From a virus (Duplodnaviria > Heunggongvirae > Uroviricota > Caudoviricetes): 64,000 nucleotides of DNA. The stretch spans positions 9,557-73,556 of IMG/VR virus record IMGVR_UViG_2579778873_000001; one strand, written 5' to 3'. The notes under the pieces were generated by a model. The model did not search any database. It was not told the origin of the DNA and saw only the letters and a program-made list of their open reading frames with translations. The translations under genes were made by a program, and so were the position numbers. Shown here one piece after another: positions 8,391-58,482 of this stretch (its first letter is position 1; each line of letters opens with the position of its first letter).

Positions 8391-8406
8391 ATTTTCTAAC
8401 ACAAAA
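8391..8406. promoter_or_regulatory. C1-type operator motif (ATTTTCTAACACAAAA)
   Basis: Member of a dispersed motif family; sits between divergent operons, 11 bp upstream of the 8417 start. Confidence 0.5.
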
Positions 8407-8416
8407 CATTAGAGTT

Positions 8417-8809
8417 ATGGCGTATCGAATCTTTGTTTCATATAAAAATGGCGCTAAGAGCCACTCTCTGAACACAACAAGTCGCTTTCTTGTTGAGGCG
8501 CAGTTGGCATCAATTCTTGCCGAAAGTGAGATACTCTCGCTCGCTGAACGGATCGTTATCCAGTTTTCTGGTAGAGATATACTCAATGTCCCCACCCTCA
8601 CCCCGGCATCCGAAGTTATGGAATCAATTAAATGGCCTGTATGCGGATGTCCTGCCAGGGTTGAAGAGCCGGTAACTGCAACGCTCTACATGCCGAAAGC
8701 TGTAAGAGATTGGCTTGCTATGGTTGGCAATGGGAAAGTCAGTGCTGGACTTCGCAAGTTAATTGAAATGGCAGATATTCCTGAGTTAAAAAATGCATGG
8801 CGACAATGA
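8417..8809 (+). CDS. Hypothetical protein, operator-controlled
   Basis: ORF-track entry 8375..8809; start moved to Met at 8417 because the upstream part overlaps the operator. Confidence 0.45.
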   Translation: MAYRIFVSYKNGAKSHSLNTTSRFLVEAQLASILAESEILSLAERIVIQFSGRDILNVPTLTPASEVMESIKWPVCGCPARVEEPVTATLYMPKAVRDWLAMVGNGKVSAGLRKLIEMADIPELKNAWRQ

Positions 8810-8825
8810 GTAAACAAGGGACAAA

Positions 8826-9284
8826 ATGAGTCACGTTAACCCCTCAAAAACACAATATCGCTTAATGCTGGCGATCGCGTCAGCTATACCAACCAGCCTG
8901 AATCCCCCGACAGGCTATCCCGCTGTTGTTGATGATTGTTTTCAGTATTACGGAGAAGACATCCTGAGCCAGTCAAAAGCGCTCAAGCAGTTATGTAAGG
9001 CAGGTATTCTTCACTGTATCGGAGAACCGGACGATTTTGTTGTTATGCTGGCGGATCGTGACTCTTTTCTACTGTCCTGGAAAGCTGGTGCGCGCGAAGC
9101 ACGTTTGGGGAATGGTATTGGTTACATAGACTATAGCGATTGTCCGCTGGCATTTGCTGGTGGATATATGCATTGGCATGAGCGAAATAGGGGCCGTCAG
9201 CGTCAGTATCGTTTGAGTGACTTTAACGTCTGTCACGGTTTCGAAGAAGCTGACAGCCAGGACATCTGGCTTCAGGAGCCTTGA
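8826..9284 (+). CDS. Hypothetical protein
   Basis: 152-aa ORF 17 bp downstream of the previous gene; no recognised motif. Confidence 0.45.
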   Translation: MSHVNPSKTQYRLMLAIASAIPTSLNPPTGYPAVVDDCFQYYGEDILSQSKALKQLCKAGILHCIGEPDDFVVMLADRDSFLLSWKAGAREARLGNGIGYIDYSDCPLAFAGGYMHWHERNRGRQRQYRLSDFNVCHGFEEADSQDIWLQEP

Positions 9285-9583
9285 TCCCCCTTCCCTTCCC
9301 AAATCTCCCTGTTTTTTTGGTTATTCAGTGCGTTTCGTTGGTTGCATTCGTCGATCGTGCTGAATAACTGTTCAGCGTATGTCGGATACTTGTTTAACAG
9401 CACTGGCGTGTCTTCTGGCACTAAACAAGGGGAGTAGTCAATCAGATTTGCCTGCGGCCTGCTGGTGGCTTCTACGGTAATTTTCACTGGCACGCTGGTT
9501 GATGGCTTTTGCCCGTTCCCGCTGCATCCTGATAACGTCATCAGGCACACGTACATCGTTAATCCCAGCACGGCGTAACGCAT
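9272..9583 (-). CDS. o-spanin (Rz1-like outer-membrane lipoprotein)
   Basis: Lipobox LSGC after a hydrophobic signal (internal Met MRYAVLG...); starts inside the i-spanin gene in another frame and extends past it (overlapped architecture); periplasmic Cys residues. Confidence 0.55.
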   Translation of the reverse strand: MRYAVLGLTMYVCLMTLSGCSGNGQKPSTSVPVKITVEATSRPQANLIDYSPCLVPEDTPVLLNKYPTYAEQLFSTIDECNQRNALNNQKNREIWEGKGDQGS

Positions 9584-9896
9584 TTTCAAGACGAGTGATT
9601 TCATTCTGGCTTTCCTCCCGTTGTTTGATTAGGTTGGCATTCAGTTCTGCTGTTTTGCGTTGGTACTCCTTTTCCAGTGCTTTAATTCTTTCGTTTTCGG
9701 TCAGCATGGCTGAGCGAGCGTTCTCACTTAACTGTAATGCGGTAGAAAGCGTGTTGTTCGTGCTTTCCAGTTGTGATTTTGAGTCTTCAAGCGATCGGAC
9801 ATACCTGATGTGTTCGATAACTGCCGTCGTTGTTCGGTAAATTCCAGAAATGGCTAAAAGAGCAATTACAATCAAAATTATCTTTTTCAAAACCAT
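9438..9896 (-). CDS. i-spanin (Rz-like inner-membrane spanin)
   Basis: N-terminal transmembrane helix (KKIILIVIALLAISGIY) followed by a long coiled-coil; overlapping lipoprotein gene. Confidence 0.65.
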   Translation of the reverse strand: MVLKKIILIVIALLAISGIYRTTTAVIEHIRYVRSLEDSKSQLESTNNTLSTALQLSENARSAMLTENERIKALEKEYQRKTAELNANLIKQREESQNEITRLENALRRAGINDVRVPDDVIRMQRERAKAINQRASENYRRSHQQAAGKSD

Positions 9897-9966
9897 CCTC
9901 TTCAGGTTTACTATTGGTGTTAAACATGTACCAATTTACATCCTTTTGTGTTCCTAAGTGGTGTTG

Positions 9967-10770
9967 CTATTGTTCCTTTTTGGTGTTCTTTTGGAGCGCA
10001 TCGATAACGCCTTGTGGCATGATTAAACTGATTGCCGGACTCATTACTGCATCATCCAGTAGAGAACCAGTTAACGTGATGGCGACAGCGTTCTCTAAAC
10101 CTTTGGTTGCCTGAGTGGTTGACGTTTTAATGCGACCTGTAAGGGCTACGACACTCTCACTTGCTGAGTTAATTTCGGAGAGTAAAACTTCGGCGGCTGT
10201 CACTGCTTCCCGTAGAGCATCAATTTCATCCTGAGTAATGACTGGAGCCTGAGCGCCCCCAGCACCACCCTGTCCACCATTGCTATCACCACCAGCACTT
10301 CCAGCAGCTTCTATTTTTGCGTTAATGGCGTTCATGGCGGTTTTCAGAGCATCAAGTTTTAGCGCCGTCAATGCGTCCGTTAGAGATTGCGGAATGGAAA
10401 CATTCCCCATCCCCTCAACAAGGGCGAAAGCAGGTATGGGGGTCAGCTCGTTACCTTTTACGTAGCATTCCCAGCCAATCTTCATCTGTAACAGCTCTGA
10501 TGGCTTGGTGTATGGGGAAAGAGAATCAGCCAGTAATGAAGACGCTTTGCTGGCCTCATTGAGCTGTTCAGAAAAGCCAAGCAATTGAGTAGTCCAGGCC
10601 GAAACAGAATCAGGATAGGTTTTATCGGCGTGAACTATTCCCTGTATGGCGCTGGCGAGTGATGAGGCTTTTACAGACGCTGCCCGGCTTATGGTTATAG
10701 ATTCTGGTGTAGAGATACCGGCATCTGACAGAATTTTGAAGGCTTTAACTTCACCTATTGAATCAAGCAT
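9967..10770 (-). CDS. Tail-associated protein, function unknown
   Basis: Start taken at internal Met (MLDSIGEV) that overlaps the PAAR gene stop in a TAATG junction; the 33-aa upstream extension is rejected. Confidence 0.45.
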   Translation of the reverse strand: MLDSIGEVKAFKILSDAGISTPESITISRAASVKASSLASAIQGIVHADKTYPDSVSAWTTQLLGFSEQLNEASKASSLLADSLSPYTKPSELLQMKIGWECYVKGNELTPIPAFALVEGMGNVSIPQSLTDALTALKLDALKTAMNAINAKIEAAGSAGGDSNGGQGGAGGAQAPVITQDEIDALREAVTAAEVLLSEINSASESVVALTGRIKTSTTQATKGLENAVAITLTGSLLDDAVMSPAISLIMPQGVIDALQKNTKKEQ

Positions 10771-11054: not shown

Positions 11055-11119
11055 TCTTCACCTCCGGGTTATCCTCCTATTGTCATCACTTTGTTATTTC
11101 ATCATTCAAACTGAGAGTT

Positions 11120-15794: not shown

Positions 15795-15820
15795 AAACGC
15801 CGCTACTGCGGCGTTTTTTA
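15795..15820 (+). terminator. Rho-independent terminator of glnS
   Basis: GC hairpin aaacgccgc-tact-gcggcgttt followed by a T-run; the dmt stop codon on the other strand overlaps the T-tract. Confidence 0.7.
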
Positions 15821-18112
15821 CTTCATTATTGCAATTATATCGTTAGCAACTACACGTGTTGACGCCTTGCAGGAAACCGACCGTCTGGCTGCCATATGAT
15901 GTACTTTAAACCCGTTTCCTTCATATAGTTCACGGATGTTTGGCGCACCACTATTTGTAATCACTACCTTAGCGCCGCGCTGGTGGGCTTCCACCAATAG
16001 AGATACCAGCCGTTTCTGTTCGTCGAAACGGAAGCTATTTCCTGAATAACTGGTAAACCCTTCTGTATCCGGCAGCGGTTCATACGGCGGATCGCAAAAA
16101 ATCACATCGCCTTCACCAGCCGCCTCGATGACGCCAGCAAAGTCACCTGATACAAAGGACGTGTTTTTGAGTACGTCATCAGCCAAAAATGCCTCCATCT
16201 CTGCATGTGGGAAGTAGGGCGCTTTGTATTTGCCATACCCCACGTTGAACTCGCCATTTTGGTTGTACCGCGTTACGCCATTAAAACAGTGCCGATTAAG
16301 GTACAAAAAGGCGGCAGCATGATGTAGCTGGTCATACTTTCCTCTGTTAAATGCCTCACGCACTTCGAGGTAAGCGTCAGCGTTGTTGTAATTTTGGAAA
16401 AAACTATATGACAGCGTGACGAGCGAATGTCCTTCTCGCTGCAATGTCTGATAGAAGTTAATCAGGTCACCGTTAATATCATTAAGCAGGTTGTGGCGAA
16501 ATCCTGCATTCGTAAATACGGAACCGCCACCAACGAATGGTTCTATTAACCGCTTGCCGTGTGGTAGATGCTCAAGCACTGTAGGTAACTCTGAGAATTT
16601 ACCTCCTACCCATTTGAAGATCGGACGCTCATATTCATCCGGAGTCCGGAGTATTCTTGTGTAGGTAATGGTATTTATTGTTTTTGGCTGTTTAGCTTCC
16701 ACAGTCGCAAGAATGCAACACCCAATCCATTGCATAACAGGAACTGCCATGCTGTTGCCAATCGCTTTGTAACGCGGCCCGTCAGCAGCGAGCATCGCGG
16801 CCTCTTCTTCGCTTAAATCTGGATAGTGATTGCGAAGGTATGCCAGTTCATCTGAGGAAATTGTTTTACGCTTTTCCGTAGGGATCAACGTATGCCCATC
16901 AGGAAAACCTTGCAGCCTTTCACATTCGACAGGGGTAAGACGGCGAACAGCTACTTTTGCGTTTCTTGCTTCATAGCAAACGGCTGTTGGATTTTGAGCC
17001 ATTAGAGATGGTGAAGTATTCTTAGTTGCAGCATGTTGTGTACCGCTCATATGCTCAGGAAAAGCTAATGTAACAAGATGCTCATGGCTTTCTTGCTCAC
17101 GCGCCCGCAATGTACCATGCCCCTCTGACCAAAAACCTGCTCCTGTGCTGCTAAAAACGGCAAGGTCAGTGGCATCTTTAAAGTCTCTTGCCTTTACTGT
17201 CGATGCGGTTTCATCGTCAATATATTCCCCAAATGCCGCCATCCTGAAAGCGTTTACGGCTTTCGTCGATTTCATACCGGGGGGCATGTCAGCGTGTAGG
17301 CATGGATTTAGACTTTCGCCACTGATTGCAGCGCCATTTGCAATAATGGCGGAAGCGATTTCCTTCTTTTTTCGGCTCGGCGCAATATTCCGGCGCACGC
17401 CTTCGAACTCAAAAAGTATCGTTGCGGGATCGAGGTCTGTTCGAGCACTTGCGACAACAAACACGCGTCGGCGTCGTTGTGCCACTCCGAAGTATTGGGC
17501 ATCAAGGATTCTCCAGGCCACTTTTCGCTGCGGTCCATAAATACAACCACACTGCGGCCACTTTGGAGCATGGCAACTGGTTTTGACATCCCACCGCCAG
17601 AACGCGTTACTTTTTCGTGATTCAGGTCGAGCACCTGGTTCGAATGGCGCATCTTCTCCAGCCAATCCGGCAAGGAAACATCCGAAGGCGTTATCTGCCG
17701 ATGACAAGACTCCTGGGACATTTTCCCAGACGATAACGGCTGGTTTGAGAAATGACTCAGCCCGTTTGTCGTCAATTGCATTTGCAAGCTCCACATACTT
17801 TAAAGTTAGCGCGCCACGCTCATCATCAAGCCCACCACGTAATCCCGCGATACTGAATGCCTGACAAGGTGTTCCCCCGACGAGCACATCAGGGGATTCG
17901 ATTTCCCCAGCCAGGACTTTTTTGGCAAGTTTTGTCATATCGCCAAGGTTGGCGACATGGGGCCAGCGGTGCGCAAGAACGGCAGATGGAAAAGGCTCGA
18001 TTTCAGCAAACCACGCCGGACGCATACCCAACGGTTCCCAGGCAATGCTCGCTGCTTCAATTCCACTGCAAACAGAACCATATCTAAGGTTAACGTTCTG
18101 CTTCACCACCAA
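15818..18112 (-). CDS. dmt: Bifunctional DNA methyltransferase (N-terminal C5-cytosine, C-terminal Dam-like N6-adenine), Dmt-like
   Basis: C5-MTase motifs ([24 protein letters not shown]) in the N-terminal half; Dam-like FKWVGGK and DPPY in the C-terminal half; no restriction endonuclease gene nearby. Confidence 0.8.
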
Positions 18113-18995: not shown

Positions 18996-19007
18996 TTCTC
19001 ACCATTT

Positions 19008-19044
19008 ATGTTAGAAAATACGCGTTAATTATCTAACACAAATG
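19008..19044. promoter_or_regulatory. Pair of C1-type operator motifs
   Basis: atgttagaaaata (19008-19020) and aattatctaacacaaatg (19027-19044) in opposite orientation, directly upstream of the rdgC start. Confidence 0.5.
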
Positions 19045-22256: not shown

Positions 22257-22406
22257 AGGTCGATCTGTCAGGTATCGAAAGGAAGATTTTCGGGAGATTG
22301 TGATTTTGGATGAAGGAGGGGGAATTCATAAAATGCACTTGCGCACAGTGCAACGGTGCGCTATAGTTATGGCATTCGGTAATCATCACGGAGGATCAAA
22401 TGACTA

Positions 22407-26709: not shown

Positions 26710-26925
26710 GCTTTGGCGTTATGACTCCCTACCGCGCTTCGGCTGAAAGTTAATCGTCAAAAGAACCTTCAACGGGAGCCGTTAGCGCGATGGATTATGT
26801 GCAGTTTGTGATTTCCAAAATAGTGTCAACCACTTTTGGTGGATTTTATTTTTTAACCGAAATTTGGCCTAAATCATGTTTATGTAGTTAATTGTTTTTA
26901 TAACATAAAACTTCATTTTGTTTGC

Positions 26926-28517: not shown

Positions 28518-28836
28518 TTTGACACCCCCAGCGCGAGTAAAGAATGCAGATTATCGCGTGAGTGGCGGACAACGAGTGACGGGAAAAGACAGTAGCTGTT
28601 CATAGTGTAGTGACTCCTTGCTTTCGGAGCCGCCATCGACTGTTCCACGGTCTGGTGGCGGCGCAATAAAGGCTGGAACACCGTGAGTCAACGGGGGCTT
28701 TTCAGCCACCTATATTGCACCGCCATAGGTATGGCGGCGGCAATAATACGAAAAACTATACAGTTTGTCTCAAAAAGTTGACCGGTGTGCCAATCGGTAG
28801 TGAATGTACATCGGAGAAATTTATAATTCAACTTAA

Positions 28837-28853
28837 AATGTTAGAAAACTAAT
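28837..28853. promoter_or_regulatory. C1-type operator motif (AAATGTTAGAAAACTAA)
   Basis: Overlaps the 3' end of the ref-like gene; oriented toward the structured region and small ORF to its left. Confidence 0.45.
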
Positions 28854-29466
28854 TCGTCAATTCAATCGCCATCTGATACAACGTCATTTCATCAGCATTG
28901 TGCCGCCTGAAATCTGCTTTACCGCCTATTTTTCCATCAGCATGAACAGGAACCAACCAGGGGTATTGCTCGCGGATCTCTGCTGGCGCTGCGTGTTGAT
29001 GGTGCCATTTACACAAAGGGAGGACGTATTTATGCGCGTTCTCTGCTGTTCTTCCGAAGATGTGGTGCAGGGATACCACAGGGCTATGCTGTCCGTGCAT
29101 ATGGCAGGCAATGCAGGGGAGAGCACCGATGGCAGTTTGTATCCGGCGCTCATCTGCTGTGAGTGTTCTGCCTTTCAGGCCGCGTGACGCGCGAGTTTTT
29201 TTGACAGGAGCAGAAGCGGCCTTCTCTTTTCTTCGCTGTTCATATTGCTTCGCTTTTTCAATTTTCTTTTGCCGATATTCAGGCGATGCGGCTTTTTCTC
29301 GCGCACGCTGCTGCTGGCGTTGAGCTTGCTGAAGACGCTTTGCCCTTTGTTCCTCCCGCCATTTCGGATCAGCCAGTTTTTGCAGGGCTTTTTGTGTCTG
29401 TTTCTCCCAATAGCTTTGCTTCATAGAAATACCCGGTTTGTCTACATAGCCGCTATGGTTGATCAA
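28849..29466 (-). CDS. HNH endonuclease, Ref-like (P1 recombination enhancement function family)
   Basis: 205 aa; basic N-terminal coiled region then HNH core (LPCIACHMHGQHSPVVSLHHIFGRTAENAHKYVLPLCKWHHQHAAPAEIREQYPWLVPVHADG); operator pair directly upstream. Confidence 0.5.
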   Translation of the reverse strand: MINHSGYVDKPGISMKQSYWEKQTQKALQKLADPKWREEQRAKRLQQAQRQQQRAREKAASPEYRQKKIEKAKQYEQRRKEKAASAPVKKTRASRGLKGRTLTADERRIQTAIGALPCIACHMHGQHSPVVSLHHIFGRTAENAHKYVLPLCKWHHQHAAPAEIREQYPWLVPVHADGKIGGKADFRRHNADEMTLYQMAIELTN

Positions 29467-29467
29467 A

Positions 29468-29506
29468 CATGTTAGAAAATCAAAATTGATTTTCTAACAC
29501 AAAATG
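29468..29506. promoter_or_regulatory. Palindromic double operator at a divergent promoter
   Basis: catgttagaaaatc / gattttctaacacaaaatg: two motifs as inverted repeats with a 6-bp spacer, between the ref-like gene and the rightward early operon. Confidence 0.55.
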
Positions 29507-34346: not shown

Positions 34347-34373
34347 TCAAATCATTTACGCACTCAAAATTAC

Positions 34374-34407
34374 GTTAGAACGTTGATTTTAGTTTTCTAA
34401 CATATTA
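34374..34407. promoter_or_regulatory. Operator motif pair upstream of 34445
   Basis: agttttctaacatatt (34392-34407) plus weaker half cgttagaacg (34374-34383). Confidence 0.45.
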
Positions 34408-34444
34408 TTTTACCGCTCGGAACAAAACAGAGTCGGTATACATT

Positions 34445-45350: not shown

Positions 45351-45404
45351 AGCACCCTCCTAAATAGGCGAGGGTACTTTACATCAAAGGCGTTAATCTA
45401 AAAA

Positions 45405-45422
45405 GATGTGTTAGAAATTTAA
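45405..45422. promoter_or_regulatory. C1-type operator motif (GATGTGTTAGAAATTTAA)
   Basis: Between the recombinase gene end and the 45350 start. Confidence 0.45.
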
Positions 45423-45423
45423 T

Positions 45424-46452
45424 TTACGAATCCATCAGGCGGCTATTAGCCCCCACAGACACACCGCCACGGCGCAGATACCGCATAAGTGTTTCCGGTT
45501 TCTTCCAGGTTCCTTCCTGCATGATCTCCACCATAGACACCTGCTTTTCAGCCATATCAATAGCGGCCCCGACGCGTGCACTATGCCCGGTCCACGTCCG
45601 GTATCTCCCTTTGTTTGGCGTAGCATCTCTTTTATTCAGCAACACCCAGGCGTCGCTGAATATTTTCTCCATTGCAGGTGCAGTAAGGGGCGTTGTCGTG
45701 ATCCTGGCCTTATTGCTACGGTGTATCGGCGGGAACAGCACTGCGTCACGATGTTCGCGAAGCCCGGAAACATCCAGCCAGTCATTCAGCACAGCGGTAG
45801 TGCGACGGGAAAGCACCTTATCAAGCCCGGCGGCGGTCGTTATTGTCTTCGTGTGTGAAATATGTAGCGTGACAGTGTCACCTGTTTGGTCCAGATCTCC
45901 TACACGAATACGCGAGATTTCCGACATACGCATCAGCGTATTGTATGCAACAAAGAGAAAAGCCCGGTTGCGCAGGTCCACCAGCCGTTCTGACCTGGAC
46001 AACAGGACGTCGAGCAGTTTCAGATCGTCCCACCGCAGCGGTATAGCCTGGCCTGTTCGTTCGCCTTTTTCAGTTGCCGCTTCGCGCCGGATGCGCCGCA
46101 TAGCCAGAGAAACACTTTTATCATCCGAAAGTGGCGGAAGGCCACAATGCGAAAGCAGCATGTTCAGCATGGCGTAGTGCTTATCAATGGTGGTCGAAGC
46201 CAGATCGGCATCATGCAGCTGAAGAAAATACTCGCGGGCCATTTCTGGTGAGATCGGGAACCAGGCGAGCTGGCGAGCGTGACACCAGCGCGCCCAGGAA
46301 TGAAACACCAACCGGAGGTCGCGCAGAGTATTCGGCGCATAAGCCCCCTGGTCATTCATGAACCGCATAAAGTTTTCTGCGGCTTCCTGGTACTCTTTGC
46401 CAATGTTGCGCAGAAAACCACCGGAACTGCCAGAGATAATTAATTCTCCCAT
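45424..46452 (-). CDS. Cre-family tyrosine recombinase (Dre-like)
   Basis: 342 aa colinear with P1 Cre (WFPISPE, LNMLLSHCGLPPLSD, AFLFVAYNTLMRMSEISRIRVGDL, WTGHSARVGAAIDMA, LMRYLR); rox-like site 150 bp upstream. Confidence 0.85.
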   Translation of the reverse strand: MGELIISGSSGGFLRNIGKEYQEAAENFMRFMNDQGAYAPNTLRDLRLVFHSWARWCHARQLAWFPISPEMAREYFLQLHDADLASTTIDKHYAMLNMLLSHCGLPPLSDDKSVSLAMRRIRREAATEKGERTGQAIPLRWDDLKLLDVLLSRSERLVDLRNRAFLFVAYNTLMRMSEISRIRVGDLDQTGDTVTLHISHTKTITTAAGLDKVLSRRTTAVLNDWLDVSGLREHRDAVLFPPIHRSNKARITTTPLTAPAMEKIFSDAWVLLNKRDATPNKGRYRTWTGHSARVGAAIDMAEKQVSMVEIMQEGTWKKPETLMRYLRRGGVSVGANSRLMDS

Positions 46453-46604: not shown

Positions 46605-46636
46605 TAACTTTAAATAATCCCCATTATTTAAAGTTA
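46605..46636. other. rox-like recombination target site (14-bp inverted arms, 4-bp spacer)
   Basis: TAACTTTAAATAAT-CCCC-ATTATTTAAAGTTA: perfect 14-bp inverted repeats; arms match the D6 rox arms as recalled, spacer CCCC. Confidence 0.65.
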
Positions 46637-46816
46637 TAAAATGCCGATTTTTTTTGTAATCCATCATAGATTGATGATGGACAGTAACACGTTGCCTTCA
46701 TGGTCTTTAATTTGCGAAGTGTGGTTTCAACGGTTGGTTTTCTAAAGTTGATGACAAAAAAATCATAGTTCGATCCTTTACTCACTCTGTTATTCGACAT
46801 AGATTTGTCATAGGGA

Positions 46817-46836
46817 TTTTATGTTAGAAAACTAAA
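46817..46836. promoter_or_regulatory. C1-type operator motif upstream of the candidate repressor gene
   Basis: ttttatgttagaaaactaaa, 14 bp upstream of the 46850 start. Confidence 0.5.
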
Positions 46837-46849
46837 TCGAGTAGGAATA

Positions 46850-47887
46850 ATGAGTAAGAAGTCGATCGAGAAAGAGTACAAACGGTTCCTGCAAACCGCT
46901 GAACGGTGGAAAGAGCTGGTGGTCGCAAACTCTGTTTTCCATGATACCAGTTATGCTGGCGAGGAATTCCGCCACGTTGCACTAACACACGACCAAAATG
47001 TACTAGAAGAAGCTGAAAAGTGCCTCGCAGAATGGAAAGCCTTTGTTGACTTGTGCCGTAATGCTGACGGCAAAGCGTCTAACATTGTTGAGTCTGTATA
47101 TTCTCCGATCCCATTCATCATTGAGGACACCAATCAAAGCACGCATGTTGTTGTGCAAAGCGCTACAACAACACGTACATTTACACGTGAACAATTGCTC
47201 AAAAAATACGACAAAATCATAAAGAAAAGCCTGAAAAATAGGGTTTTTTCTCAAATCGTAGGTGCTCTTGAAGAAGAACAGCGCTTCTTTGAAGCTGAGC
47301 CTGAAGGCGAGGTCTACCGGGCGCGTAAAGAGGCATATACAGATGTTGTGCTGACAACAAACATCGAAGGCAGCAATGCCCTTTCTCGCTTTAGAGTTGG
47401 CGCACATGGCGCATTCGTTTTCGCAAAACTACCGAAGACAACGATCCCCGTTGTCAATAATGTTGGTGAACGCCGTAGCATTACAATTTATTCTGGCGTC
47501 GAATCGGTGCCTTGCAGCCTTCTCGGCGACTTTAGCTTATATCGTGTTCGTGACCTGGAAAAACATCAGCCAAGCTACGTTGCGAAGTCGTATATCTTAA
47601 GGAACATCGATATCCGCAACGAAAACCTTAAGCAGAAATCAGCTAAGATGCTGGAGGATGCCGATCCGGCTATTCGCCATATCATTGAACGTAAGATTCG
47701 TACATCGCGTGAAGCAATGGCAAGGCTGGATAAAATGGATCTGGAATTGTTAGACGTAATGATGGCCTCTGGAGACGACCTGACCGGCATCAAACTGAAT
47801 GAAGCGCGTAAAAAATACGGCAAAGCAATCGAAGAACGTTACGGATACACATTCCCCCAAACGCAGCGCGCCGCAAAGCTCTGGTAA
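46850..47887 (+). CDS. Hypothetical protein; positional candidate for the C1-type master repressor
   Basis: 345-aa ORF in the position the c1 operon holds in P1 (divergent from the recombinase across the lox-like site, convergent with pacB) with an operator in its promoter; no sequence-level confirmation. Confidence 0.4.
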   Translation: MSKKSIEKEYKRFLQTAERWKELVVANSVFHDTSYAGEEFRHVALTHDQNVLEEAEKCLAEWKAFVDLCRNADGKASNIVESVYSPIPFIIEDTNQSTHVVVQSATTTRTFTREQLLKKYDKIIKKSLKNRVFSQIVGALEEEQRFFEAEPEGEVYRARKEAYTDVVLTTNIEGSNALSRFRVGAHGAFVFAKLPKTTIPVVNNVGERRSITIYSGVESVPCSLLGDFSLYRVRDLEKHQPSYVAKSYILRNIDIRNENLKQKSAKMLEDADPAIRHIIERKIRTSREAMARLDKMDLELLDVMMASGDDLTGIKLNEARKKYGKAIEERYGYTFPQTQRAAKLW

Positions 47888-47915: not shown

Positions 47916-49424
47916 TTATATATCCAGATCCGGCATTTCGATATCCGCCAGAACCTGATCTCGGAAAGTTGCCATTTCGGCACCAATATCTTCATTAGCA
48001 GGCACATAGTCCACCAGCATAGTGAAGCAGTAGGTATCCCATCGGTCAGGCGATTTGATGTTTAGCTTTTGCCGCATGTGCTCTTTGCGCATCATCGCCA
48101 TTTTCCCTTCTTCATTCAGTAAAAAGGGGATTTTTGACGCTTGCTCTGCCGTTTTAGAGTCACTGTCTATCCGCATACGCCCTGACTTTATGGCATCACG
48201 CGCCATAATATTTGCGTAGGCTCGCTGATTAACAAATCGCTCCCTGTCTTTGTTCGCAAACATGGGTTTTCCCCACCGAATACGTACCGGGTTCGCACCA
48301 CGACGCACCAACTGCGCACACGTATCAGAACCAAAACCATCAGCATCAACCGCGATTGTTATATTCGGGTATTTTTCCGGCGTACATTCGTTATATATGA
48401 AGTCAGCAAAGGCCAATGGGTCCATAGTGCCAGGCATCTCCATTACCTTAAAGTTAACAACGCGCCGCTTATCCCTGTGACCTGATACCTTGCAGATGTT
48501 GAGGACCGACTTATCTCGCCCATTACCAACGTCAGCCGTTGCCACCCATCCCCAGTTTTTCTCCAACAACACCTTGCGGCGAGCAGCGCGATCGCATTCA
48601 TCACGACCAAGCAAATAGCCGTTAATTTCTCGTGGGAACTGACCAAGCACCTTGACCATGTACTCAATAGAATCGCGCCCGCCATATTCCAGAAGCTTCT
48701 CCTTGATGAATTGTGGTGTGACGAACGGTGATTCTTCCGAGTTAAGAACAATTGCTGTCCAGATCCCTTTCGGGTTGTCTGGGGTTTTTGCTCGAGAATG
48801 GTGCGAATCGTAGAAATAACCACTTGGCCTTGTTGGCTGGGATAGCATCAACATCCGGTTATCTTCTTCAGTAAGAGCACCGGTCATTACGCCGATCGCC
48901 TTATCAGATATACCAGATGCTTCATCCAGAATTAGAAGCAAATGTGCCGCGTGTTCCCCCGCCAGCGCTTCTTCGTTGCCGAGTCGATAACCTTTGCAGA
49001 GAACTTCCCAAATCCCCTTACGGGAGCGCTCATAAAACATGGTGTCAGAGAGGACAAAATAGGTCTGCAACCACCCATGACGCTTAACTGCATTCGCCCA
49101 ATACTGTTTAACGTATTTGAATACGCCTGTTTTTACCTGGCCTATCTTGTTAGCAACAATGATGACACGGGCATCGGGGAACAGGATCATAAAAATCAAC
49201 AGCAACATCGCGGTAAGGGACGACTTCCCCGTTCCGTGTCCGGACGTGACGGTAGTCCTACTCCCCGTTTCCTGTACGGACTGAATGATCTGCTGCTGCT
49301 GGTGGGAGGGGAACATCCCAAAAATATCGACAACAGCCTGGGTAAAGTTGTAGCGGTATTTGATTACCATATCGCGCCAGCGTGGATCTCTGGTGACGCA
49401 TTTAACCTTGCGCCTGCCAGCCAT
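47916..49424 (-). CDS. pacB: Terminase large subunit (PacB-like)
   Basis: 502 aa with Walker A TSGHGTGKSS and downstream acidic nuclease-type residues; coupled to the upstream small subunit. Confidence 0.7.
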   Translation of the reverse strand: MAGRRKVKCVTRDPRWRDMVIKYRYNFTQAVVDIFGMFPSHQQQQIIQSVQETGSRTTVTSGHGTGKSSLTAMLLLIFMILFPDARVIIVANKIGQVKTGVFKYVKQYWANAVKRHGWLQTYFVLSDTMFYERSRKGIWEVLCKGYRLGNEEALAGEHAAHLLLILDEASGISDKAIGVMTGALTEEDNRMLMLSQPTRPSGYFYDSHHSRAKTPDNPKGIWTAIVLNSEESPFVTPQFIKEKLLEYGGRDSIEYMVKVLGQFPREINGYLLGRDECDRAARRKVLLEKNWGWVATADVGNGRDKSVLNICKVSGHRDKRRVVNFKVMEMPGTMDPLAFADFIYNECTPEKYPNITIAVDADGFGSDTCAQLVRRGANPVRIRWGKPMFANKDRERFVNQRAYANIMARDAIKSGRMRIDSDSKTAEQASKIPFLLNEEGKMAMMRKEHMRQKLNIKSPDRWDTYCFTMLVDYVPANEDIGAEMATFRDQVLADIEMPDLDI

Positions 49425-50788
49425 TAATCATCCTCCGGCGGTTCTATCGCGATATCATCATCTCCGGCGTCATACCCTGCATCAGATGCATCATAATCAC
49501 CGTAAATTTCAGCCGTTGCCGAAGGGTCAATATCCAGCTCTTCGTCGTTGGCCTCGAATTCTCCAGCTTTACGCTCGCCATTGCGGTCGTAATCTCCGCA
49601 CCCCAATTCTTCAACAATGGTTGCCACATCCGCCCGGCGCTCTGCCAGCCATTGCGGATGGTTAGCCTGAAGCGTTGCAAACTCCCTTGCCTCTTTGTCC
49701 AGCTGTTCATCATCAACATCATTGACGTCAGAAACAGGTGGTTCGAGAAGAGTGATAGCTTTCGCCGCGCGCGCCGCGAGGATAGCCGGGACGCTGACAC
49801 CCTGGCGCTCGATGTATTCAGCAACACCGATATCATCCAGTTCCTCGCGCTCACGCATACGTATAGCGGCGGCGATAACTCTGGCTGCGCGTGCGTCAGC
49901 GCCAATGCGATATTCAATCTCTTTGCCACGCTGTTCGGCCTGTAGGCGTGCTAATTCGAGTTTTTCTCTGGCCTCAGCCTCTTTGAATGCTTGCTGGCGA
50001 GCGCTCTGACGAAGCTTTTCATCCCCCTGTCGCAGCTTTTGTTCGGACTGATAAATAGCTGCCAACCTACTGATAAAATCATTCATGTAGTAGGCCGCGT
50101 CACTGATTAGACCGAGAAGGCGCTGCCCAGGGTGCATTCCTTCTGGCTCTTTATCGCCCAGGGTGTCTATTTCCGCCTGTAGACGTTCGGCCTCCTGATC
50201 AACAATGCTTTGATACTGAAGTGCGCGCTCTTGCGCCATTTGAATTGCTAACCGCAGGTGTTCTTCTGCGCCGTTCTTCATCATATCGCGAGCTACATTC
50301 GTAGTTGGCAATGTGGCACGCTGCACAGCACCGTCAGGGATCATTGCAGAAGATCCCTCAATTTTTGGGGCGCTTTTATCTTCTTCGGGGATCATTTTCG
50401 CCATTTTTTCGCGTAATGATCTCCTGACGGATTCTTTTATCTCATTGTTATTATTTGAATTATTTTCATGATCCGAAGTTTTCTTTCTCGGCATACTTCG
50501 GAAAGAACCTGCGCCCTGCGAATTGTCAATTTCTGTAAATTTTGTTTTTCCTGCACCCTCTTCCTGCTTTTTTGTTGCTCTTCCTGCCCGTTTTTTTTCA
50601 GGTGATTTGGTGCTTTTTTTTGTTGTCTTTACCTGCGACCGCACCTCATTTTTTTTCATATTGAGATGCTTTCTGGCTGTATTGAAGCTAAGGCCATGCT
50701 CCTCACAGTATTCCTTTACAGTGATCCCTTTTTCTTCACGCAACGCTATAAAGCGGGCGCGGTGCTCCTCCCAATTAACCAGACTCAT
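49424..50788 (-). CDS. pacA: Terminase small subunit (PacA-like)
   Basis: N-terminal HTH-like segment, charged coiled-coil middle, acidic C-terminus; position directly upstream of the large subunit. Confidence 0.55.
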   Translation of the reverse strand: MSLVNWEEHRARFIALREEKGITVKEYCEEHGLSFNTARKHLNMKKNEVRSQVKTTKKSTKSPEKKRAGRATKKQEEGAGKTKFTEIDNSQGAGSFRSMPRKKTSDHENNSNNNNEIKESVRRSLREKMAKMIPEEDKSAPKIEGSSAMIPDGAVQRATLPTTNVARDMMKNGAEEHLRLAIQMAQERALQYQSIVDQEAERLQAEIDTLGDKEPEGMHPGQRLLGLISDAAYYMNDFISRLAAIYQSEQKLRQGDEKLRQSARQQAFKEAEAREKLELARLQAEQRGKEIEYRIGADARAARVIAAAIRMREREELDDIGVAEYIERQGVSVPAILAARAAKAITLLEPPVSDVNDVDDEQLDKEAREFATLQANHPQWLAERRADVATIVEELGCGDYDRNGERKAGEFEANDEELDIDPSATAEIYGDYDASDAGYDAGDDDIAIEPPEDD

Positions 50789-51177: not shown

Positions 51178-51250
51178 TAATCCCCCGGGCAGGAAATGAC
51201 CGAGGGGATGATAATGAGAATGTTAAAACTGTATAGACTGGCAAAAAGAT

Positions 51251-51270
51251 GATTGTATTAGAAAATTAAT
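51251..51270. promoter_or_regulatory. C1-type operator motif upstream of the packaging operon
   Basis: gattgtattagaaaattaat. Confidence 0.5.
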
Positions 51271-51285
51271 ACTAAATATCTAATG

Positions 51286-52707: not shown

Positions 52708-52783
52708 TGGTGGCCCCTACCGGACTTGAACCGGTGACCGTGCGATTATGAGTCGCCAGCTCTAACCACTGAGCTAAAGGGCC
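52708..52783 (-). tRNA. tRNA with CAU anticodon (ileX-like tRNA-Ile2, or Met)
   Basis: 76-nt cloverleaf read by hand: acceptor GGCCCTT/AGGGGCC, anticodon loop CTCATAA, T-loop TTCAAGT, encoded CCA; close to E. coli ileX as recalled. Confidence 0.8.
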
Positions 52784-52937
52784 AGATTACTGTTAATTCC
52801 GCTTACGCTTTTTGCCAGGACCGCGTAAGGCTTTTGCTGCTTGCTCGACCCCATATGCAACCACCAGCAGAAATAAAAATGTCCACCAAGGGTTCTTGTC
52901 GGCAAACGTCCAAAATTCCATCATGTTCTCTATTTGG

Positions 52938-53765
52938 TTATTTCACCGGAACAAACGGAACAGCGGTATTACTGGTCATATACTGCGGTAGCGTTCCGTT
53001 CCATTTGTTGATCGCTTCCAACTCCATAACGCCGGGGTTCTGGCGCAGAGCCTCACCGCGTAAACGAATGGCATCAGCTTCAGCCTGGGCTTTTGTGCGA
53101 ATGGCATCGGCCTGTCCGGCAGCTTCTGCGCGCAGCATGTTGGCTTCTGCTTCGCGTTGCTTGACTTCCTGCTCGCGTTGCAGAGTTTTCTGGTTCGCCG
53201 TGACTTTGGCATTAATGCTGTCGATAACGGTTGGCGGGTACTCCGGCTTGCCCACATATGAGAGGCTCATTACCTGAATACCGATGGGCGTCATTTCTTC
53301 CTGGATGTCTTTAAGAGCTGCATCCAGCAGTTCAGACTTGCCACCGTCGATAAATTTGTCGGTGGTCATTTTGCTGGCCAGTCGGTTAAGTGCGTCGGCA
53401 ATCTTCTGGCGCAGGTCGGTGTCGGTAATGTCATCCACGCCTTTGCGGTAGGTCTGAAATACAGTTGTGACTTTTGCCGGATCAACCTTGTAAGCTACAC
53501 CAATGTGGTAACCAATTGTTGTCCCGTCGCTCATTTGGAAGCTGAACGGATCATCATAGGTCTTCATTTGCTTAAAGGTCGGGAAGATATAAACTTCTGT
53601 GTTCCAGCCTGTCCAGTAGCGACCAACGCCAACTACTTCGCCGACACCTTTATCATCCCCCAGCTTATTTACTTTGATCCCTACATTGCCTGGTTCTACC
53701 CGGTCGCATCCGGTCAGACATAAAGAACCAAAAATAATCGCTGCACTAATCAACGTTTTTTTCAT
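52938..53765 (-). CDS. SPFH/band-7 family lipoprotein (Plp-like)
   Basis: Lipobox LTGC after a signal peptide; C-terminal Ala/Glu/Arg-rich coiled-coil typical of SPFH proteins. Confidence 0.6.
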   Translation of the reverse strand: MKKTLISAAIIFGSLCLTGCDRVEPGNVGIKVNKLGDDKGVGEVVGVGRYWTGWNTEVYIFPTFKQMKTYDDPFSFQMSDGTTIGYHIGVAYKVDPAKVTTVFQTYRKGVDDITDTDLRQKIADALNRLASKMTTDKFIDGGKSELLDAALKDIQEEMTPIGIQVMSLSYVGKPEYPPTVIDSINAKVTANQKTLQREQEVKQREAEANMLRAEAAGQADAIRTKAQAEADAIRLRGEALRQNPGVMELEAINKWNGTLPQYMTSNTAVPFVPVK

Positions 53766-53983
53766 TAATCAATTTCCTGGATTTTTTTGCGAAAAAAGAC
53801 TACTGCAAAAGCCGGGTAAATGAGCGCGAGAAGGACTCCCAACAATACAAGTATTGTGCTGTCAGATGAGATCATATTTGGCAAAAGCCAAACATACAGA
53901 ACCAGTGACACAATCAAACAGAGGACGACATAAATATATAGCCGCACCCATAGCGTTCGACATTTGTTCGGATTGTTCTGCAT
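53765..53983 (-). CDS. Small integral membrane protein (Upl-like)
   Basis: 72 aa with two hydrophobic helices; coupled to the lipoprotein gene. Confidence 0.45.
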   Translation of the reverse strand: MQNNPNKCRTLWVRLYIYVVLCLIVSLVLYVWLLPNMISSDSTILVLLGVLLALIYPAFAVVFFRKKIQEID

Positions 53984-54246
53984 CCTCTCACTCCATTATT
54001 TAACGAATAAAAAAGCTGCGGTGCCTGGTGCCTCCAGGTGACGTTAACCAGTTAACAATTAACGCCGGGATGTTTGATTTAACCACTAATAAGGATTGTT
54101 TTAACTGTTCCGCGTGCGCTTAGCCGCATTCACCGCAATGGTAAGAGCACTTGGCTGGCTGGGCGGCGATGACGCCTGTACGCATTTGGTGATCCGGTTC
54201 TGCTTCCGGCATTCGCTTAATTAGCCAAATACTCTTAACGTTGCGC

Positions 54247-54332
54247 TGGCGGAGAGTAATGGAATCGAACCATCATCGCTTGCGCAATGGGACGGTTTTC
54301 AAGACCGCTTGAGCACCATGCTCCCTACTCTC
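54247..54332 (-). tRNA. tRNA-like element with Ser-type anticodon loop (UGA); non-canonical, possibly degenerate
   Basis: Acceptor GGAGAGT/ACTCTCC plus G and CCA, anticodon arm CGGT-CTTGAAA-ACCG, long variable hairpin with GCAA loop, T-loop TTCGATT; but 5-nt D-loop and A at position 8. Confidence 0.3.
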
Positions 54333-54474
54333 CGGCCGTTGTGGTGGCCGGTACTGAATCTCCGGCATACGGTGCAGCCAATTAGGACTACGGACGATCA
54401 CCGCTCGCGAAAGGGAAGATTTGCGGCCGCATTTCCCTAACATCCAAGAAAGCTATCGCATCAGTCTGCGAATC

Positions 54475-54574
54475 CACCACAACGTTGAGAACACTGGTTG
54501 TCACGCTGCCTCGCGACATTTATTCATAGATTGGGATATGATCCCGTTACGCCAATGTTCTCAACGTTGTGGTG
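54475..54574. repeat. 19-bp perfect inverted repeat flanking a 62-nt loop
   Basis: caccacaacgttgagaaca (54475-54493) and its reverse complement (54556-54574); right arm runs into a 12-nt copy of the tRNA-Thr 3' end. Confidence 0.5.
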
Positions 54575-54798
54575 CCGGTTACGGTTCCGGCCAGGCCTCT
54601 TCCTCAACGGGGTGTTCTCCATACGGACTACCGTTTATTGGTCGTTCCTGCGGTTTATGTTGTGAAGCCAGATGCTTATCTTCTGGTTGCTTCAAAGAGC
54701 TGCACTTCATCACAACGGTAAGGGTACTTCGTAGGGATTCGAACCCTCTGCCAAGCACGGCGATCTCCGACGTCGCAAAATACCCTTACCTGTTGTGT

Positions 54799-54874
54799 TG
54801 GTGCCGGTTAACGGACTCGAACCGCTGACATCCTGCTTACAAGGCAGGCGCTCTACCAACTGAGCTAAACCGGC
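54799..54874 (-). tRNA. tRNA-Thr (UGU)
   Basis: 76-nt cloverleaf: acceptor GCCGGTT/AACCGGC, anticodon loop CTTGTAA, T-loop TTCGAGT, CCA encoded. Confidence 0.85.
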
Positions 54875-54876
54875 AT

Positions 54877-54952
54877 TGGCGATGGTGGATGGATTTGAAC
54901 CATCGACCCGTTGATTAACAGTCAACCGCTCTAACCGCTGAGCTACACCATC
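54877..54952 (-). tRNA. tRNA-Asn (GUU)
   Basis: 76-nt cloverleaf: acceptor GATGGTG/CACCATC, anticodon loop CTGTTAA, T-loop TTCAAAT, CCA encoded; 2 nt from tRNA-Thr. Confidence 0.85.
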
Positions 54953-55533: not shown

Positions 55534-56171
55534 GATGCGGCACTCTCTCCGCCCGTCACCGCTCTGTCTCGGTTGTCGCGTTTGCCACGCCAGCCATAAC
55601 GAGGTTTAAAGTCTTTGCACGTTCCCATCACTCGACTGCCGTCTGTGGCTGTTCGTTGCAGCGGGGGTGCCTCCCCCTGGGGATGTCCCCGGCCTTACCC
55701 CATTCTTTCAAGACACAATGCAAGGCCACATCCGCATAGGTGCATTACCGCAACATTAAGGAGACTCAGGGCAAAAGGTAACCGCCACAAAAATCCCTAT
55801 GCCTCCTTAATGTTGAAGATGTGCATTGATGATTAGATGCAGCATGTACCGTTACTCTCTGCCGGACCATCATCAATGAACACCTTAAAAAGACCTTCCG
55901 TGGCTCAACATGTACTGTCGTTTACTCCGCAAAGTGCTCTCTCTGAAACCACTTTCCGCACTAAACCTGCTGAACTTTGGCCTGCACGGTGCCAAAGCGT
56001 GCTCTTGCGTTACTATACTTTTCTAACGCTTTAATTTGTTAAATGCTGGTGGGCGAACAATAACCAATAAGTGACTATCAAGCCCAGCAAGCGAAACGTG
56101 GGTGCCGCCCACCAGCAAGGAAAATTCTATGTTAAGTTACCTTCACAATCAATACATTCGAATCGTAATTT

Positions 56172-56190
56172 TAGATTTCTAACACATTAT
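56172..56190. promoter_or_regulatory. C1-type operator motif (TAGATTTCTAACACATTAT)
   Basis: Overlaps the stop of 56187..57410; oriented toward the gene-free region and tRNA cluster. Confidence 0.45.
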
Positions 56191-57410: not shown

Positions 57411-57420
57411 TTTGCTAAAT

Positions 57421-57440
57421 TAGTTTTCTAACATATTTTA
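57421..57440. promoter_or_regulatory. C1-type operator motif
   Basis: tagttttctaacatatttta. Confidence 0.5.
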
Positions 57441-57508
57441 TTAGTTTGATGACGGTATCGGAAGATGCAGTAAACAAAAAACCCGCTAATTGGCGGGTTT
57501 TTATGCAA

Positions 57509-57823
57509 TTACTGTGTTGCAACCTCATAAATAAGATACGCGATAAATACAGGTACGATGGCCCATTGCAGCAATGAAAGTAGCCTCATTACTGTTATTG
57601 GGGTAACTCCATCCACGTATTGTTTCTCTGACATTTTCCCTAACCAACTAACCGACAACAGTGCCGAGTTTTCACCCAATTCCAGCTCTCTGAGAGCTTC
57701 ACGGATTAACGGCGCTGTCACAGCCTTAACCGGTGTGCTCAACGTGATACTCCGCGTCCTCCCCGCATCGTCAGCGAACGCCAGACTCACATAATATTTT
57801 TTGCTCAATGTACAAACTCCCAA
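57509..57823 (-). CDS. Small protein with C-terminal TM helix
   Basis: 104 aa; LLSLLQWAIVPVFIAYLIY at the C-terminus. Confidence 0.4.
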   Translation of the reverse strand: MGVCTLSKKYYVSLAFADDAGRTRSITLSTPVKAVTAPLIREALRELELGENSALLSVSWLGKMSEKQYVDGVTPITVMRLLSLLQWAIVPVFIAYLIYEVATQ

Positions 57824-58005
57824 TCATCAGCGCTTGCACTTTCCGGGGTTATGTGAACCTTATCGCCAGTAACAATATTGCGAGCTTCAAAACTTCCATT
57901 GATACGTTTCGAGATCTCAATACATAGAGCCTGCTGCCATGAGCGACGCCGAGCGATAGCATTAGTTCCTGCAGGGATAAGTTCAGCCACGTTAAGTAAA
58001 CGCAA
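57805..58005 (-). CDS. Small hypothetical protein
   Basis: 66-aa ORF between the nuclease and TM-protein genes. Confidence 0.35.
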   Translation of the reverse strand: MRLLNVAELIPAGTNAIARRRSWQQALCIEISKRINGSFEARNIVTGDKVHITPESASADDWEFVH

Positions 58006-58019
58006 AACGATTTCTCCGT

Positions 58020-58466
58020 TTAATCAAGATTTACATATTCCGTGATAGCTTTTATGGCTTCATCGGCACTGCGCGCCTCAAAGCAGTAATAGCCTGCTTC
58101 CGTGAGGCGAGTCATCCAGACGAGCTGTTCGGGAGTCAGACGGTTTCTCCCGTGCTTCATCTCAATGCGCATTCCGTGATACCCACCACGAGCAAGGTCA
58201 ATAGAAAGGTCCGGATAGCCCTTCTTCTGACCTTCTGCCACCATCTTAATGGCTGTCCTTTTGCCTCTCAGGCCGCCGTTCGGTGTTGAGTGTGTGTGCT
58301 CATACACGTATCGCATGTTGCGATACAGCCAATCCAGAACGCGAACCTGTTCGTAATGTTCGTAATTCCGTTTTAATAAGTCAGGATTTCTTTCTAACTC
58401 TCTCAGTGCAGCAGCGTGCGGGGATATTTCAGAATACGCACTATGATGCCTGCGTCTTCGCATCAA
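58020..58466 (-). CDS. VRR-NUC domain nuclease (PD-(D/E)xK superfamily)
   Basis: 148 aa with GYPDLSIDL ... RIEMKHGRN arrangement typical of VRR-NUC; operator overlaps its start. Confidence 0.55.
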   Translation of the reverse strand: MMRRRRHHSAYSEISPHAAALRELERNPDLLKRNYEHYEQVRVLDWLYRNMRYVYEHTHSTPNGGLRGKRTAIKMVAEGQKKGYPDLSIDLARGGYHGMRIEMKHGRNRLTPEQLVWMTRLTEAGYYCFEARSADEAIKAITEYVNLD

Positions 58467-58482
58467 TTTTCTAACACAAAAT
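58465..58482. promoter_or_regulatory. C1-type operator motif overlapping the nuclease start codon
   Basis: caattttctaacacaaaa. Confidence 0.5.

Follow-up and report, generated by a model that had tools for sequence, protein, structure and literature searches.

A dispersed asymmetric motif is the probable operator of the C1-family repressor in a D6-type plasmid prophage

The DNA analyzed here is a stretch of 64,000 nt from a viral record in IMG/VR (IMGVR_UViG_2579778873_000001, positions 9,557 to 73,556), hereafter called the window, and it was ~97% identical to Escherichia phage D6 across most of its length by megablast. D6 is a P1-like plasmid prophage whose record labels successive genes "similar to P1 gene ...", and, judged by its sequence, the 64-kb window represents a D6-type plasmid prophage of the P1 family. 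Position 1 of the window aligns with D6 position 45815, and window position 46623 aligns with D6 position 3, beside rox at the start of the D6 record. The genes and sites pacA (49424-50788), pacB (47916-49424), c1 (46850-47887), rox (~46606-46637), and dre (45424-46452) lie in the same order as in P1. The window is nevertheless a mosaic variant of D6 with several segments replaced; pmgM directly adjoins the tail-fiber gene S (~58637), and D6 positions 11533-35300 are missing within the 64 kb. We describe a motif that is scattered between the genes of this element and that is probably the operator of the repressor encoded by c1.

A preliminary description of this DNA had pointed to a dispersed motif, present in both orientations and almost always placed at operon starts, and our counts bear out the motif. 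The exact core TTCTAACA occurs 11 times across both strands (at 8394, 29492, 34395, 56177, 57426, and 58469 on the plus strand and at 19009, 28839, 29470, 45409, and 46822 on the minus strand), compared to 1.88 copies expected and a maximum of 5 in 100 shuffles. All 11 copies fall within the 15% of the window that lacks an open reading frame (ORF) of at least 80 amino acids, and dinucleotide shuffles of the intergenic stretches alone gave a mean of 0.36 copies and a maximum of 3. A similar frequency in coding DNA or in shuffled sequence, which the preliminary description had named as the outcome that would speak against its proposal, was thus not what we observed. When intergenic 8-mers were counted without any prior pattern, the top three were all pieces of the motif (TTAGAAAA, 13 copies; GTTAGAAA, 12 copies; TGTTAGAA, 11 copies). 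The same 8-mer count applied to P1 as a positive control yielded the known C1 operator, and the method therefore detects this kind of signal.

We then described the motif by a 23-bp position matrix trained on the 11 exact-core sites, with expected numbers taken from Markov-1 resamples. Fourteen sites scored above 14 bits (14.1 to 33.2), compared to 0.27 expected, and a fifteenth scored 13.9 bits; all were intergenic. Four of the sites scoring at least 13.9 bits lie outside the training set (19022-19044, plus strand, 21.3 bits; 51250-51272, minus strand, 18.9 bits; 26889-26911, plus strand, 14.1 bits; and 34367-34389, minus strand, 13.9 bits). Each position on the earlier list was matched to within a few bases, including a weak half-site at 34374 and a degenerate copy at 51251, but the list had missed candidates at 56012-56034 (plus strand) and, more weakly, at 26842 and 26889. 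The proposed length of ~17 bp proved too short: in a set of 42 non-redundant sites taken from four genomes, conservation extends to A-N2-TT-R-R-T-T-TTCTAACA-Y-A. As an operator class, we write the motif as TTTTCTAACA.

The predicted repressor gene and the candidate operators, named after adjacent genes, are as follows. Several sites are kept in D6, JS316, the Escherichia fergusonii plasmid pEF-4, or the metagenome-assembled contig L013, as indicated.

46850-47887, plus strand: c1 homolog, encoding the predicted repressor of 345 amino acids
46816-46838, minus strand: c1 operator, 32.1 bits; the core ends 20 nt before the c1 ATG, and the site faces rox/dre
51250-51285, minus strand: lpa operator, core TTCTAATA, 18.9 bits, untrained, paired across a 14-nt gap with an inverted, degenerate copy CATTAGAT
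29464-29505, both strands: palindromic bivalent operator of ref (minus strand) and the orf88-ppp early operon (plus strand), halves of 26.5 and 31.5 bits
28833-28855, minus strand: ref-stop operator, 26.9 bits, overlying the ref stop codon, with a c4-like RNA and an icd remnant following ~100 nt downstream
19003-19044, both strands: bivalent operator of hrdC(rdgC)-dmt, halves of 19.6 and 21.3 bits, arranged as TGTTAGAT-N14-TTCTAACA
34367-34408, both strands: bivalent ppp/pdcB-like operator, a strong half of 33.2 bits and a weak half of 13.9 bits, arranged as CGTTAGAA-N14-TTCTAACA; kept in D6 and pEF-4
45403-45425, minus strand: orf117-dut operator, 28.8 bits, between the dre stop codon and the operon; kept in D6, JS316, pEF-4, and L013
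8385-8407, plus strand: orf52-orf53 operator, 30.5 bits, divergent from capsid gene 23; kept in D6, JS316, and pEF-4
56168-56190, plus strand: operator of the tRNA/SPFH unit, 31.1 bits, directly 3' of pmgS and preceding the tRNA/SPFH unit, which is on the minus strand
56012-56034, plus strand: weak second site in the tRNA region, core TTCTAACG, 11.7 bits in the window
57417-57439, plus strand: pmgS operator, 32.7 bits, upstream of pmgS; kept in D6, JS316, pEF-4, and L013
58460-58482, plus strand: pmgM operator, 28.2 bits, at the start of pmgM and facing a small conserved plus-strand ORF at 58563-58625
26842-26911, plus strand: two weak candidates before a simB-like ORF, 13.1 and 14.1 bits (D6 equivalents, 13.1 and 12.4 bits); membership uncertain

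At four of these loci (hrdC, ref/orf88, pdcB, and lpa), the motif is accompanied by a second, inverted copy. In a scan of gaps from 8 to 20 nt in four genomes, each partner with at most one mismatch was found at a gap of exactly 14 nt, which sets the 8-bp cores 22 bp apart from center to center. The pair reported earlier as a palindrome at 29468-29506, between the divergent operons of ref (minus strand) and orf88-ppp (plus strand), is indeed perfect: at 29470-29499, arms of 14 nt are 100% complementary around a 2-nt center. The bivalent operators of P1 (Obanab and Oc1ab) differ in consisting of two overlapping 17-mers that are offset by 11 bp and have their A/T-rich 3' ends facing each other; the pairs of the D6 type are inverted, separate, and 14 nt apart, and the overlapping layout does not occur in the window. 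We also considered the 5' TTAG as a short-spaced second half-site and dropped it, since true partners occur only at the 14-nt gap.

The positions of the sites can be compared with those of the C1 operators of P1. The P1 record AF234172 annotates 20 such operators with the consensus ATTGCTCTAATAAATTT, and the same asymmetric consensus has been published (PMC8546580). The P1 consensus given in the preliminary description agrees with both sources. The P1 operators stand at the following genes.

Oref: ref
Omat: the end of ref
Oc4: c4-icd-ant
OrepL: kilA-repL
Odmt: uhr-hrdC-dmt
Obanab: the C1-controlled ban operon, with the genes for tRNA-Asn and tRNA-Thr and tci
OpmgRa/b, OpmgT, Oppp, and O26: pmg genes, with OpmgRa/b before pmgR-pmgS
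Olpa: lpa
Oc1a-e: c1/coi

Among the genes that bear P1 operators, window sites were present at ref, at the ref stop codon with its c4-like RNA (the counterpart of the Omat and Oc4 positions), at hrdC-dmt, lpa, and c1, at the tRNA operon (in the position of Oban), and at pmgS/pmgM. Together with the presence of a gene for a C1-family repressor, this agrees with the earlier proposal of dispersed, C1-type control as in P1. The c1 locus itself carries one operator in the window, compared to five in P1 (Oc1a-e). Applied to the whole of D6, the window matrix found the homologous sites and two more within the 24 kb that the window lacks, one at c4-icd-ant (30.1 bits) and one at repL (16.8 bits). Both lie outside the training data and occupy the positions of P1 Oc4 and OrepL.

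The C1 protein of the window is 97.4% identical to the "prophage repressor" of D6 and aligned with P1 C1 at 20% identity over 242 amino acids (BLASTP, E 5e-8). The family phrog_1678 matched both window C1 (E 1e-167) and P1 C1 (E 3e-140), and PF27008 (Phage_P7_repressor_C1) is recorded on homologs of window C1 that are 97 to 31% identical to it. A search against a copy of Pfam that does not contain PF27008 assigned no family to either window C1 or P1 C1, even at E 10. On the basis of these profile and sequence matches, window C1 is a member of the P1/P7 C1 family. The window protein is longer than P1 C1 (345 vs. 283 amino acids) and has a predicted C-terminal helical extension, with helices at approximately residues 241-342, that has no counterpart in P1 C1.

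The predicted operator specificity differs from that of P1. The preliminary description had proposed that the motif shares a core with the P1 operator but has different flanks, and the matrices support this view. The best score of a P1-operator matrix in the window was 13.1 bits, in coding DNA, compared to 21 sites above 14 bits in P1, and the window matrix found nothing above 12 bits in P1. When the two are aligned on TCTAA, which is all that they have in common, the P1 sequence is ATTGC-TCTAA-TAAATTT and that of the window is RWTTT-TCTAA-CAYAWWW; the D6-type operator thus differs from that of P1 in its flanks (TTTTCTAACAYA) and has, in addition, a 5' A-N2-TTRRT element. Because the flanks differ (TTT-TCTAA-CA vs. 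TGC-TCTAA-TA), neither repressor should read the operators of the other. We therefore expect D6-type and P1 elements to be heteroimmune with respect to C1, as we infer from their sequences. The D6-type element falls outside the P1/P7 immC specificity group in operator type, C1 equivalog score, bivalent layout, and accessory proteins alike. Homologs of Coi, ImcA/B, Lxc, and Ant1/2 were absent from the window and from D6 in tblastn searches with the P1 proteins (E < 0.01), and the same searches found only Icd, RepL (in D6), and Lpa.

We also followed the motif into more distant relatives. It is the top intergenic 8-mer of pEF-4 (C1 70.6% identical), where it occupies homologous places, and contig L013 (C1 52% identical) keeps TTTTCTAACA. 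In alignments, the motif forms a conserved island amid diverged flanks in the leaders of lpa and pmgM and in the dre-c1 and ref spacers. Plasmids of Leclercia (pE1_003), Pantoea (pPA-MXU-90), and Citrobacter (NZ_CP099371) encode C1 proteins that are 29-31% identical to that of the window and 38-49% identical to one another. We did not find TTCTAACA on these three plasmids; (A/T)TTCTAAGG was the top intergenic word or among the top enriched ones, and this third-class motif, (A/T)TTCTAAGGnTTT, lies upstream of c1, lpa, ref, hrdC, the recombinase gene, and a pmgS-like gene. TCTAA is common to the P1, D6-type, and Leclercia/Pantoea/Citrobacter classes. Since the window, pEF-4, and L013 keep the motif and the plasmids with C1 proteins of ~30% identity switch to another, the motif class follows the C1 clade.

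The site at 46816-46838 is presumed to be the autoregulatory site of c1. It is a perfectly kept island in a dre-c1 spacer that has otherwise diverged between the window and pEF-4. Two conserved promoter-like hexamers lie upstream of it, 17 nt apart (TTTACT at 46777-46782 and TAGATT at 46800-46805, the latter TAAATT in pEF-4), from which we infer that the operator would lie just downstream of the transcription start. A block upstream of c1 that contains a GATC (Dam) site, GATCCTTTACTCA (46772-46784), is likewise conserved in the window and pEF-4 and overlaps the putative -35 hexamer; several promoters of the P1 c1 region are annotated with Dam sites. Relatives also carry stronger versions of two of the weaker sites: pEF-4 has a perfect pair, TGTTAGAA-N14-TTCTAACA, at the position equivalent to the lpa operator, and the equivalent of the 56012 site has a canonical core in D6 (17.2 bits), pEF-4 (17.8 bits), and L013. 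At the start of pmgM, TTTCTAACAC is the sole fully conserved block across the window, D6, JS316, and pEF-4. The start region of the plus-strand ORF that this operator faces (58563-58625; 20 codons, beginning ATGCAACAGGTCGGA) is also conserved in these four, and the ORF may encode a small peptide or represent the 5' end of a transcript.

The late operons of the element bear a different sequence. AF234172 annotates 11 Lpa-dependent late promoters in P1, each with a -22 box AAGTGACTT followed after 4 nt by a -10 hexamer TAnnnT. The Lpa homolog of the window (PF25716) is only 31% identical to P1 Lpa, and we therefore did not presume that its late box would be the same. A P1 late-promoter matrix gave a single good match in the window (25790, plus strand) and so does not explain the sites described above. 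We compared the regions upstream of late genes, using 23, 7, 26, mat, and R of the window together with D6 lydA, prt, and pmgB. The majority have in common AAATCACA(A/T/C)ACTG, followed at a fixed distance by a -10-like hexamer of the TAnnnT type; D6 lydA has a box with one mismatch, and gene 26 has no such box. In short form, the late box can be written as AAATCACAAACTG followed by the -10 hexamer. Of nine AAATCACA copies in the window, four lie upstream of late operons and are oriented with them:

8321-8328, minus strand: late box upstream of the gene 23 operon
22299-22306, minus strand: late box upstream of the gene 7 operon
26807-26814, minus strand: late box upstream of the mat operon
63575-63582, minus strand: late box upstream of the R operon

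AAATCACA(A/T/C)ACTG is probably the D6-type counterpart of the Lpa late-promoter box of P1. The core TTCTAACA was not found upstream of 23, 7, 26, mat, R, or pacA, and as the late operons bear the AAATCACAAACTG box, TTCTAACA is not the late-promoter box.

We conclude that TTTTCTAACA is most likely the binding site of the master repressor of the prophage, a distant relative of P1 C1 with a different specificity. We put the probability that the motif serves as operator for the C1 repressor of the D6 type (46850-47887) at approximately 0.8, with binding by C1 presumed from positional homology and the precedent of P1. In the plasmid-prophage state, C1 would occupy ~15 sites, amounting to ~11 loci of which four are inverted pairs, each at a promoter or a short way downstream of one. 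Through them it would repress units with early, replication, recombination, and immunity functions, namely c1 (perhaps with dre), lpa, c4-icd, ref, orf88-ppp, pdcB, hrdC-dmt, orf117-dut, the tRNA unit, pmgS, pmgM, and orf52, to which the full-length D6 set would add repL and a second c4-icd-ant. Keeping lpa off would keep the late operons off indirectly, and C1 would restrain its own production by way of the c1-leader site. As proposed from the behavior of P1 C1, a single C1 molecule would bind each asymmetric site of ~20 bp; at the four paired loci, two molecules would occupy one face of the DNA at a distance of two helical turns. Repression may be exerted by promoter occlusion or by a roadblock.

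Several observations weigh against this interpretation. The link between C1 and the motif rests on positional homology and on the precedent of P1, and window C1 is a remote relative of the P1 protein, with an identity of only 20% and a score of 25.3 bits against the NCBIfam equivalog model NF041318, for which the cut-off is 500 and P1 C1 scores 607. The sites at 56177, 57426, and 58469 point against the neighboring minus-strand genes. Generic σ70 and terminator scans around three sites placed no clear promoters over the sites. The switch of motif between clades does not single out C1, because the plasmids concerned are separate and more distant lineages, and the shuffle statistics for the third clade are optimistic, because the patterns were picked after inspection of the data.

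A regulatory protein other than C1, encoded by the element or by the host, might bind the motif instead. The element does encode other DNA-binding candidates (HigA-type antitoxins and small proteins of the early operons), and the tie between C1 and the motif is indirect. However, the positions match the P1 C1 regulon gene for gene, one site lies upstream of c1 itself, the motif class tracks the C1 clade over five lineages, and the sharing of TCTAA with the experimentally defined P1 C1 operator would otherwise be hard to explain; we consider a different binder unlikely. It is also quite unlikely that the motif is a promoter element in its own right, such as an early-promoter consensus or an extended -10-like TGTTAGAAA on the other strand. 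Its constant proximity to gene starts, its A/T-rich flanks, and the resemblance of TGnTAGAAA to an extended -10 element would fit such a role, but its ten invariant bases are far above the conservation of σ70 promoters and have no consistent -35 partner. Moreover, the orientation to the downstream gene varies, inverted pairs occur at a fixed gap of 14 nt, and the homologous places in P1 are operators, annotated as protein_bind features. Since operator and promoter hexamers overlap in P1, a dual role as operator and promoter is possible and would be compatible with binding by C1.

The divergence of Lpa from its P1 homolog, the single good match to the P1 late-promoter matrix, and the fact that the bases after the core (YAWWWT) can resemble a -10 hexamer would all allow the motif to be the recognition box of Lpa, that is, the D6 counterpart of the P1 -22 box. 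We regard this as very unlikely, given that the motif stands before c1, lpa, ref, c4-icd, hrdC-dmt, and the tRNAs rather than before late operons, which share the other box, AAATCACA(A/T/C)ACTG, and that its copies face either way with respect to genes and can form inverted pairs. Intergenic DNA here is A/T-rich and the window is mosaic relative to D6, so that a compositional artifact or the remains of small repeats at mosaic joints could be imagined. The dinucleotide shuffles of intergenic DNA (0.36 copies vs. 11 observed) reject this explanation, and only 10-20 bp are conserved between unrelated flanks; it is extremely improbable. The notion that the sites mark mosaic joints was rejected as well, as the break points between D6 and the window do not coincide with them. 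An operator for the D6-type C1 repressor thus remains our preferred account of the motif.

A structural prediction bears on how C1 might read such a site. An AlphaFold2 model of window C1, built from an 8-sequence alignment (predicted local distance difference test score, 80.5; predicted template modeling [TM] score, 0.49), was compared with the PDB using Foldseek. Four matches had E ≤1e-3, all of them to Tus (best E 4.5e-8; probability 1.00; ~305 columns; TM-scores 0.33-0.40). Searches of PDB sequences with C1 or a C1 profile gave no match, alignment of the C1 profile with E. coli Tus by hhalign gave a probability of 0.2, a fold search of BFVD gave no significant match, and full-text literature searches retrieved no paper linking C1 to Tus. 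The predicted likeness of fold between C1 and Tus is thus a lead and not a result, and common descent of the two is unproven. Tus binds an asymmetric site as a monomer, as is reported for P1 C1 on its asymmetric 17-bp site. We also looked at a resemblance of the operator to the Ter sequence and dropped it as numerology. A broader and tentative proposal, which may well not hold, is that C1-type prophage repressors have a Tus fold, that one molecule binds each asymmetric site of ~20 bp, and that the family comprises three or more operator classes with a constant TCTAA and variable flanks (P1, TGCTCTAATA; D6 type, TTTTCTAACA; Leclercia/Citrobacter/Pantoea, WTTCTAAGG), each of which would define an immunity group among phage-plasmids. 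Should the likeness of fold be real, bound operators might also block transcription or replication in an orientation-dependent manner, as in Tus-Ter.

The surroundings of some of the sites yielded further observations. In a local search by E-value, a C4-like antisense RNA was found at 28651-28730 on the minus strand (Rfam RF01695; 40.2 bits, E 5e-6; the gathering score of 45 was not reached). It sits between the operator at 28839 and a remnant of an Icd homolog at 28205-28107, and because there is no antirepressor gene downstream, the locus looks like a truncated immI-like unit. Genes for tRNA-Met (CAT), tRNA-Ser, tRNA-Thr, and tRNA-Asn were found at 52708-54952 on the minus strand by ARAGORN and Rfam; at the gathering threshold, Rfam returned only tRNAs in the window, and no DicF-like match was found upstream of them. 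The D6 tRNAs (6084-7850) are also on the minus strand according to ARAGORN and Rfam; in the record of D6, by contrast, three are annotated, on the plus strand, and tRNA-Met is absent.

The mosaic structure of the element is evident at several places. At ~58482-58640, pmgM runs into the 3' end of a tail-fiber gene of 1,481 amino acids, a junction that was found in no PLSDB plasmid. The D6 block of ~24 kb that is missing in the 64 kb contains darB, c4-icd-ant, repL, pro, prt, darA, lydAB, cin, and U; its absence may mean that the element is defective or that this block is situated beyond the window. The methyltransferase gene at 15818-18112 (minus strand) is a single P1-like dmt of 764 amino acids, ~96% identical to P1 over 1.4 kb, where D6 has two separate methylase genes, and is one of several mosaic replacements. 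The window contains 41 copies of Chi (GCTGGTGG; 20 plus-strand and 21 minus-strand copies), compared to ~2 expected per 64 kb, with examples at 9156, 11034, and 56045 (plus strand) and at 2281 and 56109 (minus strand); the commonest 8-mer of the window is CCACCAGC. P1 is likewise rich in Chi.

Full-text literature searches found no description of a D6 operator, the original D6 genome and immC papers being outside that search, and the GenBank records of D6 carry no operator features. There is roughly a one-in-four chance that the motif has already been noted in earlier literature. D6 is a known phage, and the element is a presumably heteroimmune variant of a known P1-type system; the surprise is moderate, because a P1 specialist would expect a heteroimmune relative to have an operator of its own. 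Phage-plasmids of the D6 kind are widespread in E. coli and Salmonella, with this c1 family present on 149 plasmid records in PLSDB, and their silencing has so far been deduced only from the label "similar to P1 c1". The operator set provides a testable map of the lysogeny regulon and predicts, through immunity groups, which P1-like elements can coexist with or superinfect one another. A further use lies in repressor/operator pairs expected to show no cross-reaction with the P1 system of cloning vectors. The three TCTAA operator classes and the Tus-like predicted fold bring within reach the old question of how a monomeric repressor reads an asymmetric site.

Among known systems, Tus-Ter differs from C1 in having no detectable sequence similarity to it, a low TM-score, and a function in fork arrest rather than transcriptional repression. 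The Lpa-dependent late promoters of P1 are alike in that a second dispersed motif precedes the late operons of an element with an Lpa homolog, and they are unlike TTCTAACA in both motif and genes. The lambdoid repressors (lambda, 434, and P22) offer a parallel, as they too are homologous repressors whose diverged operator specificities define immunity groups; they are helix-turn-helix dimers on symmetric operators clustered at two loci, however, whereas the D6-type sites are asymmetric and spread genome-wide. The closest likeness is to the C1 system of P1 and P7, in which many asymmetric sites, some of them paired, are likewise scattered in intergenic DNA and share the TCTAA core, and the neighborhood pacB-c1-lox/rox-recombinase is that of P1, with lox/cre there and rox/dre here.

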